Source: Hormiphora californensis
Lineage: Eukaryota; Animalia; Ctenophora
Direction of reading: 5' to 3'
DNA length: 64,000 nt
Assembly: GCA_020137815.1 (NCBI GenBank)
Contig: CM035360.1
Location: forward strand, 5,146,001 to 5,210,000
Position 1 is the first letter of the stretch. Every line of letters begins with the position of its first letter. Positions 56,989 through 59,900 of this stretch are shown piece by piece. Below the pieces are notes generated by a model. It saw nothing but the letters and a program-made list of their open reading frames with translations. It ran no database searches and had not been told where the DNA came from. A program made the translations under genes and the position numbers.

Positions 56989-59900
56989 ATGTGTGGTAAG
57001 TTATCAATTTTATCAAGATGAAAATATCTATCTAACTTTCGTCAATTCCAAATACAGGAATTTTCGCGTATCTCAACTTCTGTGTGCCATGTCAGCGAAA
57101 GAAGATCTACGAAATTCTTCTCCGGGGACTTGAGAGGCTTGAATACAGAGGCTATGACTCTGCTGGTACGTATGTTTGACGTCATAGAACAGTCGAACTT
57201 AGTTATCAAGAGTCGTCATTCATGCGAAGACATCGACAAGCAACAAATGATTAATCCACGCACTATTTCTTAAGTCTTTAGCATCTAACTCTTAGTATTC
57301 TAACATGATGTTACCCACTCCCAGGACTTGCGGTTGATTTTCCAGAAGAGGGAGTTCATATTGCCAGGAAGCAGGGAAAAGTGAAGATGCTACGAAACAT
57401 GGTTTTTGGTAAGTTATAAACCATCTCTGAAAATGAAGGAAATGGGCCACTAGGCCTTTCATCATGATGCCCCAGACGGTGTAACCAGCCCCTCACACAG
57501 CATCTCTGAACAACTAATAAAGTTATCACTAGCTCACCTATAATAATTCCAATATCCCTGTACAGATGTCGAAAAGGCCCAATATGAGACAATTGCTGTT
57601 ACTCATGTGGGTATTGCTCACACCCGGTGGGCTACTCACGGTGAACCAAGCGAGAGAAATGCTCATCCCCAGTCATCCGGTGAAGATAGCTCTTTCCTTT
57701 GTGTTCACAATGGAATCATTACCAACTTTAAAGACATCAAAAAGTTCCTGGTACGTTTCAACTTGTTCTTTTTTATGTGGGTAAAAAGAGCACTTCTCTT
57801 CGTACCCCTGCCTCCCCGCCAATTCCCTCATGACATGAATTAGAAATCAGAACATTACGTACCAGTAATTACCCCCTTCTCTCCAAACCTCAGGAGTCTA
57901 AAGTCTAAACATTACGTACCAGTTATTACCCCCCTCCTCCCAAACCTCAGGAGTCTAAACAGTACGTGTTCACCTCGGAAACTGACACAGAATGTATACC
58001 CAAGTTGGCCCACTACATCTACCACAACAGTGAGGAGGAGGAACTCTCTTTTACTGATGTCGTTGAGCGGTGTATCTCTCAGCTGGTGAGGGCTCCAGTC
58101 GCCACTGACACTGTTCTGTCGGAGCATAATGTCTGTCAGGACAATGATTGTCCTGACAGACATTGTTTGTGTAATATGTGTGATATAGAGAGGGGAGAGA
58201 GAGGCTAATTGTAGAAGAAAGAAAGAGGAAGCGAGTGAGATGTTTGTTTTGACGTTTCCATCGATTTGCGCCTAAACCGATTTTTTCTCTCTCAGGAGGG
58301 AGCTTTCGCGTTGGTGTTCAAAAGTAGATTGTTCCCGGATCAAATTGTGGCAGTTAAACGTGGTTCTCCCCTTTTGGTTGGGATTAAGAGTGAGGATCAG
58401 ATAACCATGGACAAAGTTAACATTACATACAGGGGACGACAAGGTGAGTTAACATTACATACAGGGGACGACAAGGTGAGTTAACATTACATACAGGGGA
58501 CGACAAGGTGAGTTAACATTACATACAGGGGACGACAAGGTGAGTTAACATTACATACAGGGGACGACAAGGTGAGTTAACATTACAAACAGGGGACGAC
58601 AAGGTGAGTTAACATTACAAACAGGGGACGACAAGGTGAGTTAACATTACATACAGGGGACGACAAGGTGAGTTAACATTACATACAGGGGACGACAAGG
58701 TGAGTTAACATTACATACAGGGGACGACAAGGTGAGTTAACATTACATACAGGGGACGACAAGGTGAGTTAACATTACATACAGGGGACGACAAGGTGAG
58801 TTAACATTACATACAGGGGACGACAAGGTGAGTTAACATTACATACAGGGGACGACAAGGTGAGTTAACATTACAAACAGGGGACGACAAGGTGAGTTAA
58901 CATTACATACAGGGGACGACAAGGTGAGTTGCCACTATTAGAGTAGAGTGGTGGTGGATTGTTGGAGTTAATAAAGGTGCCCACCCTACCCCCGGTAATA
59001 TGTTTGGTTAGTGAATTTGATTTATTTTTCAGCATCTGGAGATCGACCATTTAGTCCCCCTGGAACATCAGCTGAGTACTTCTTCGCTTCAGATGCAAGG
59101 TACTTTCTCACTGATCTCCTTTTTTTTCTCAAATTGAAATGTCTCATCCCCCTATATTATTTCATTCGCATAATTCTTGCTCAGATCTCATTATTCTGAA
59201 TATCTCAGAGTACTGATTGTGTTAGTTTGTGAAGGAAACAAAGAGACAGAGTCCTCGTATTATGGCTAATTAAATTCAATGATAACTAAACTTTTAATTG
59301 GAAAGTCTAACCACTCTAAGTGTAGACTAACTCCAGAGTCCAGACCAACTCCAGATCTCCATTACATAGGTTCAAAAGATCCCTCAGGTTCAAAAGATCC
59401 CTCAGGACAGCTATATCCATCAGGACACTCAATGGGAGATGCAGTACCTTTGGGGCAATAGTACCCAGCGGGACACAATTTACAGGAACCCTGGCCTTCC
59501 ATGTCATTGTAGGTTCCAGGGGCACATAGGATAGGTTGGGCAGAGCCTTCGGGGCAATAGTACCCAACGGGACACATCACACAGAAATGTGCACCCACAA
59601 GTCCGACCATATCACTGTAGGTACCTGCCGGGCATGGGATAGGTGACACTGACCCGGTGGGGCAATAATGCCCAGTGTAGCACAATTTACAGGAACCCTG
59701 GCCTTCCATGTCATTGTAGGTTCCAGCGGCACATAGCATAGGTTGGGCAGAGCCTTCGGGGCAAAAGTGTGCAGAGGGACAATCGTAGCAGGATGAAATG
59801 TCCATCGCGTTGGTGTCCGGATTAAACGTTCCTGAAAAAGAAGATATCTTGTGTAGTTACTTCATTACCAATCTAATGATCATATTCTAATGATCCTTCA

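Follow-up and report, generated by a model that had tools for sequence, protein, structure and literature searches.

Minisatellites that run across an exon–intron junction have been described before, and those listed in PMC1557585 lie in F7, CBS, 6-16, LMNB2 and PDGF. In F7, of 5–9 identical donors the most upstream alone is used, and variation of the copy number from 1 to 12 left this choice unchanged, whereas splicing of human CBS and 6-16 also draws on two additional donors (PMC1557585). The CBS repeat, c.1444_1467+7(16_21), has a 31 bp unit of 24 exon and 7 intron nt that is present in 16–21 copies (PMC2630376), and a table row and a reference title in PMC1395315 tie it to lower CBS activity. 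The lancelet repeats termed ‘mirages’ are described as leaving splicing undisturbed (PMC3087553), and repeats at exon–intron boundaries have also been surveyed in human duplicated genes (PMC2812944). A literature search, mostly of papers outside subscription, found no case of a junction minisatellite in a ctenophore.

The window analysed here is the whole 64,000-nucleotide stretch of Hormiphora californensis DNA (contig CM035360.1, positions 5,146,001 to 5,210,000). It contains a GFPT/GFAT gene in which the end of exon 6 is repeated in tandem. The features of this part of the gene are as follows.

56989..62255, plus strand: GFPT/GFAT gene, exons 1–12, with 497 open codons from MCGIF; the later exons (after residue 497) lie beyond the window and completeness of the gene is assumed.
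58296..58443, plus strand: GFPT exon 6 (148 nt), with the authentic donor at 58443/58444 (exon model, human GFAT1 match, spliced alignment).
58416..58930, plus strand: junction minisatellite of 16 x 32 bp, with 28 exon nt and GTGA in each unit; seen also in read contigs from two studies.
58444..59032, plus strand: GFPT intron 6 (589 nt, phase 1), made up of the array (487 nt) followed by a unique tail that leads to the acceptor (exon model, spliced alignment).
58482..58484, plus strand: in-frame TAA, met on read-through beyond donor 2 (translation).
58931..59022, plus strand: unique tail of GFPT intron 6; sample S2 (see below) has 13 other letters in its place.
59033..59099, plus strand: GFPT exon 7 (67 nt; exon model, contigs, spliced alignment).

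The gene is identified by its Pfam GATase_6 and SIS domains. Exon 6 matches human GFAT1 with E=1.3e-11, and its closest named relatives are ctenophore proteins (Bolinopsis 84%, Mnemiopsis 80%). A spliced alignment of Bolinopsis GFAT, made independently of the exon model, recovered the same 11 introns and chose donor 1 as the end of exon 6.

The array is an exon–intron-junction (‘mirage’) minisatellite. Its units run head to tail across the boundary, each consisting of 28 exon and 4 intron nt, and at 32 bp the unit falls within the 10–160 bp range of that class with the splice signal retained in every copy. Unit 1 comprises the terminal 28 nt of exon 6 (58416–58443) followed by the intronic GTGA, and identical CAAG/GTGAGT donors (the slash marks the splice point) follow in 16/16 units at positions 58443+32k, with k=0–15. 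The strength of the donor is 10.2 bits. Thirteen of the 16 units are identical, and a single T>A change is common to units 6, 7 and 15. TRF called the repeat at 58415–58930 with a period of 32, 16.1 copies and 99% matches, and a donor-spanning 20-mer has 16 matches in the window against 0.00 expected (100 shuffles). The amplification had been described in a first-pass annotation of the same DNA as 16 copies of the last 28 exon nt plus gtga, and the TRF call, the 20-mer count and the unit alignment all bear this out; the AG/GT and ttaac..acag strings that it reported in each unit are likewise present. The annotation overlooked that the array belongs to a named, known class, and that three further duplicated splice sites lie within 3 kb of it.

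When each donor is joined to the normal exon 7 acceptor, the reading frame stays open from donor 1 only. Donor 2 produces a frameshift that leads to a stop at codon 258. Donors 3–16 include the TAA at 58482–58484 and stop at codon 236, which agrees with the annotated read-through into this codon (DDKVS*). Use of any alternative donor therefore places a premature stop upstream of later junctions, as in unproductive splicing. The first-pass annotation had reasoned that a 32-bp unit leaves donor 1 alone productive. Donor 1 is indeed the only one that stays open, but donors 4, 7, 10, 13 and 16 restore the frame and owe their closure to the TAA rather than to the 32-bp period. Joining donor 2 to a cryptic GAG at 59076 would on paper keep the product in frame; this combination was discarded as a candidate, the GAG being without a pyrimidine tract.

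Duplicated splice sites are also found around the array, both in GFPT and in a second gene nested within it. These features, and the other genes of the window, are given below.

57851..57959, plus strand: the acceptor between intron 4 and exon 5, duplicated in tandem (57 bp) to give sites at 57893 and 57950; splicing to the first of these runs into a stop.
60774..60845, plus strand: duplication of the exon 8 donor at an offset of 49 bp (60779 and 60828); the second donor leads to a stop.
60002..60290, minus strand: second donor array, where the first exon of the nested gene ends, with a 37-bp unit (about 31 exon and 6 intron nt) and 8 donors, only the first of which is open.
59365..60356, minus strand: the nested gene, two exons lying antisense within GFPT intron 7, about 186 aa, with Ephrin_rec_like repeats (PF07699, E=6.8e-14).
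5908–7047, plus strand: LRR1-like gene, a long single ORF.
12348–13421, plus strand: EamA-family gene, a long single ORF.
14230–19977, minus strand: beta-hexosaminidase.
32601–38689, minus strand: kinase, which we take to be STE20/OSR1-like.
40453–48260, minus strand: NPC1-like gene.

The product of the nested gene is likely a secreted Cys-rich protein; its Ephrin_rec_like repeats are Cys-rich, and a signal peptide is predicted by eye. Counting as duplicated those splice sites that recur in tandem within 150 bp, 4/24 sites at the GFPT/nested locus are affected compared with 0/68 in three neighbouring genes (NPC1 0/34, hexosaminidase 0/20, kinase 0/14). Fisher's test gives p=0.004, or 0.015 without the GFPT array that drew attention to the locus. 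The neighbour counts rule out, for this window, a window-wide tendency to duplicate splice sites. For NPC1 and hexosaminidase they were made after introns with conflicting alignments or a doubtful look had been removed, and the 14 sites of the kinase include a doubtful one. The clustering is suggestive only, because the locus was picked after the fact, doubtful introns were dropped from the controls, and NPC1 has three tandem duplications of its own, all of them intronic and clear of the splice sites.

Other repeats are present in the window. A 10-bp satellite at 63538–64000 runs off its end; should GFPT continue beyond exon 12, this satellite would lie within its intron 12. Inside a 2561-nt intron of the kinase gene, an inverted pair of 166-bp x 2.8 arrays (35998–37317) looks like a foldback element. 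In the published genome of a cydippid ctenophore, tandem repeats are described as making up 13% and nested genes as numbering 2357 (PMC8527503); both features are thus ordinary among ctenophores.

The array was compared with contigs from four public runs, which were placed on the two flanks, each flank with about two units; none of the contigs spans the full array. Three of the runs are DNA: X1 from sample S1, possibly the source of the window, and X5 and X6 from sample S2 of another study. Contigs made of units only have depths of 3200–3600 in X1 (56–93 in the flanks), 8848 in X5 (212–239 in the flanks) and 18056 in X6 (479–701 in the flanks), or roughly 26–64x flank depth across the two studies, and a head-to-tail joint between units is present in an X5 contig. 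Unit depths are not copy numbers; being more than 16-fold those of the flanks, they hint that some haplotype has more than 16 units or that the unit also occurs elsewhere.

Absence of the array from raw reads had been named in the first-pass annotation as the sign of an assembly stutter. The unit is present in read contigs, and a stutter was set aside because of the unit depth in three DNA runs. The head-to-tail joints and the recurrence of unit variants also speak against it. In its favour are the lack of any listed contig that spans the array and a unit depth suggestive of more than 16 copies, by which the assembled number may be wrong. Overall this explanation is largely refuted and is extremely improbable.

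The two samples differ in structure at the 3′ end of the array, while contigs cannot give the copy number in either. In S2 (both X5 and X6) the array leaves at the equivalent of 58904, passes through 13 other letters and then joins position 59023, the start of the last 10 nt of the intron; in these runs no placed contig covers 58937–59020. The distance from the last donor to the acceptor is therefore 36 nt in S2 against 109 nt in the window, and with only 36 nt between them the array probably makes up most of intron 6. That the S2 array is located at GFPT intron 6 is the simplest reading of these contigs, not a proven one. The window's modelled introns number 39 and have a median length of about 150 nt; the shortest measures 62 nt and the next 100 nt. 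One 89-nt contig of X6 (depth 590, placed at 58431; not listed for X5) joins 27 letters absent from the window to the repeat unit; either the array contains an insertion, or the contig stems from a second locus. Downstream, the summed contig depth rises to 5,600–17,800 at 59165–59200 in X1, X5 and X6; a high-copy dispersed repeat therefore begins there, in GFPT intron 7.

The fourth run, X8, is guessed to be RNA and comes from a relative that is about 81–88% alike. It holds one 898-nt contig that lacks introns 2–4 and passes in frame from the end of exon 6 through exon 7 to exon 8. This confirms the donor-1 position as a conserved exon end; it does not show which donor a carrier of the array uses, and the genome of the X8 animal may lack the array.

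The array did not create intron 6, whose acceptor is not derived from the repeat. A gain of the intron through tandem duplication (the Rogers model) was rejected: the exon 7 acceptor lies in unique sequence, the start of exon 7 is unlike the continuation of the unit, and the unit already contains the intronic GTGA. A lobate-like, genomic-looking fragment (P0004, P0134) is continuous across the exon 6/7 boundary and is broken at the introns on either side, so that 5 and 7 are kept. By eye, however, 7/21 loci (the first 21 of 80 fetched) seem to enter an intron 1–2 codons earlier than GFPT intron 6. From these alignments the intron is probably old and was probably lost in the lobate-like lineage. 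The 80 loci come from a protein-based scan of a metagenome collection in which none showed a full-length match above 64% identity, and hence no ctenophore genomic relative; the 27-nt core of the unit had 0 exact matches in the contigs of the same collection.

Taken together, the array is probably a near-neutral exon–intron-junction minisatellite in which the first donor is likely kept in use, the array itself probably being a length polymorphism. It may have started when slippage occurred at a pair of short matching words spaced by 32 bp (AGTT is found on both flanks), and could have grown by unequal exchange, compatible with the variant common to units 6, 7 and 15. Duplications across a donor would persist because the extra copies land in the intron. 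The most upstream donor would then win, on the pattern of human F7; leakage to later donors, if any, would yield mRNA with a premature stop that is presumably degraded. By analogy, a first-donor rule appears to be the best reading of the array, favoured because F7 gives a direct precedent (PMC1557585) and because it fits the one X8 contig from the diverged relative. The scanning evidence for F7 comes from mammalian cells with exon definition. Against the first-donor reading, introns in this ctenophore stretch are short, and donors closer to the acceptor could gain from intron definition. Plain neutrality also does not explain why 4/24 sites are duplicated here and 0/68 in the neighbours. A special RNA fold of the array was considered and rejected. 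The array folds with z=-3.5 against dinucleotide shuffles, but 148/200 repeat-preserving controls fold as well or better, making the apparent stability an effect of repetition; predicted accessibility is low at all 16 donors, and donor 1 has no consistent advantage by which it might be singled out.

Several explanations give the array or its locus a more active part. The GFPT locus could be a hotspot that seeds duplications at splice junctions, the array having replaced nearly the whole intron in one haplotype; copy number would then set intron length, with a minimum number of units needed for GFAT splicing. We regard this as rather unlikely. Also unlikely is a leaky rheostat, in which donors 2–3 take a measurable share, their products are lost to NMD and the GFAT level follows the allele, as has been suggested for the human CBS repeat. 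The donor is strong (10.2 bits), every later copy leads to a stop that is premature and lies well before further junctions, and two extra donors are used in CBS and 6-16 (PMC1557585); by analogy with these two human genes, and with the lower activity tied to the CBS repeat, a leak to later donors and a dosage effect are plausible, and judged from the reading frames NMD-coupled tuning of GFAT by copy number, as put forward in the first-pass annotation, is possible. However, donor choice in F7 is unaffected by copy number (PMC1557585), a leak confined to donors 2–3 would not scale with it, and the like design in the unrelated nested gene points to mutation and not to regulation. This second array, only 1.1 kb away, argues against a GFAT-specific device. 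The repeat might instead be a needed spacer, in that the unique part of intron 6 in S2 is only 36 nt and the repeat gives the intron its length; a single unit would impair splicing, and selection would hold a minimum copy number. The X5 and X6 contigs, which exit the array and reach the last 10 intron nt after 13 added letters, agree with this, as do the modelled introns of the window (62 nt at the shortest and 100 nt for the next). Against it, short-word contigs cannot count the units at the GFPT locus, the window allele still has 16 units with its 109-nt tail, and the short tail may stem from a deletion that came later and was tolerated since the array was already present. On this balance a spacer is improbable.

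Recursive splicing, or a ladder of 11-nt microexons, through the AG/GT and ACAG/G of each unit is very improbable. A ratchet point consists of YAG/GT with a pyrimidine tract upstream, and recursive splice sites occur in long introns. Scored with a matrix from the 39 introns of the window, the in-unit AAG/GT reaches -5.5, below 39/39 real acceptors; among 402 intronic decoy sites it exceeds only 47% and lies near the median. It is preceded by 6/17 pyrimidines compared with 9–16 in real sites, and intron 6 measures only 589 nt, so that neither property of a ratchet point is found in the array. ACAG/G is a borderline acceptor: its score of 4.3 exceeds 94% of the 402 decoys and 7/39 real acceptors, but its 8/17 pyrimidines are fewer than in any of the 39. 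Three or six 11-nt microexons would keep the frame, whereas a single use adds one that is out of frame. The same ACAG occurs within exon 6, where its use would cut conserved coding sequence, and adjacent donor–acceptor pairs would be 21–32 nt apart. Of the mechanisms offered by the first-pass annotation, the first-donor rule stands as the best reading, with the F7 precedent and the X8 contig behind it, while recursive splicing at a ratchet-like AG/GT is unsupported by the acceptor scores.

The GFPT array extends a class known in humans and lancelets to the ctenophores. A regulatory role has so far no evidence in its support. If first-donor use is true, the F7 rule from mammalian cells would also be valid in a short-intron, early-branching animal, and if the hotspot reading is true the locus would offer a natural allelic series for first-donor choice in the earliest-branching animals. 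Two independent arrays 1.1 kb apart, together with alleles that have 36-nt and 109-nt tails, make a handy test bed.

In design the GFPT array resembles the CBS exon 13/intron 13 VNTR, which likewise has a unit about 30 bp long that consists largely of exon end (24+7 nt in CBS, 28+4 in GFPT), is present in 16–21 copies, lies in a gene for a metabolic enzyme and carries a donor in each unit (PMC2630376). The two are unrelated in sequence and origin, and unlike the GFPT array the CBS repeat comes with measured use of two extra donors and with population allele counts (PMC1557585, PMC2630376). In a second human parallel, CBS 844ins68, an intron/exon boundary is duplicated and splicing takes the downstream copy (PMC2630376); this case corresponds to the 57-bp duplication of the exon 5 acceptor and not to the donor array. 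The 37-bp VNTR of F7 intron 7 similarly places its first unit across the exon–intron boundary and has identical donors of which the first alone is productive; its unit is however mostly intron (4+33 nt) and occurs in 5–9 copies, and first-donor use was established with minigenes in mammalian cells (PMC1557585). The lancelet mirages of Adh3 and the globins BflGb6 and BflGb9 share with this locus tandem copies of donor-end as well as acceptor-end boundaries, unit lengths of 10–160 bp and a marine invertebrate host (PMC3087553); their haplotype differences may have a counterpart in the unlike 3′ ends of S1 and S2. The locus described here differs from them in its ctenophore host, in having four duplicated sites within 3 kb that belong to two genes on opposite strands, and in one haplotype whose intron is probably almost all array.
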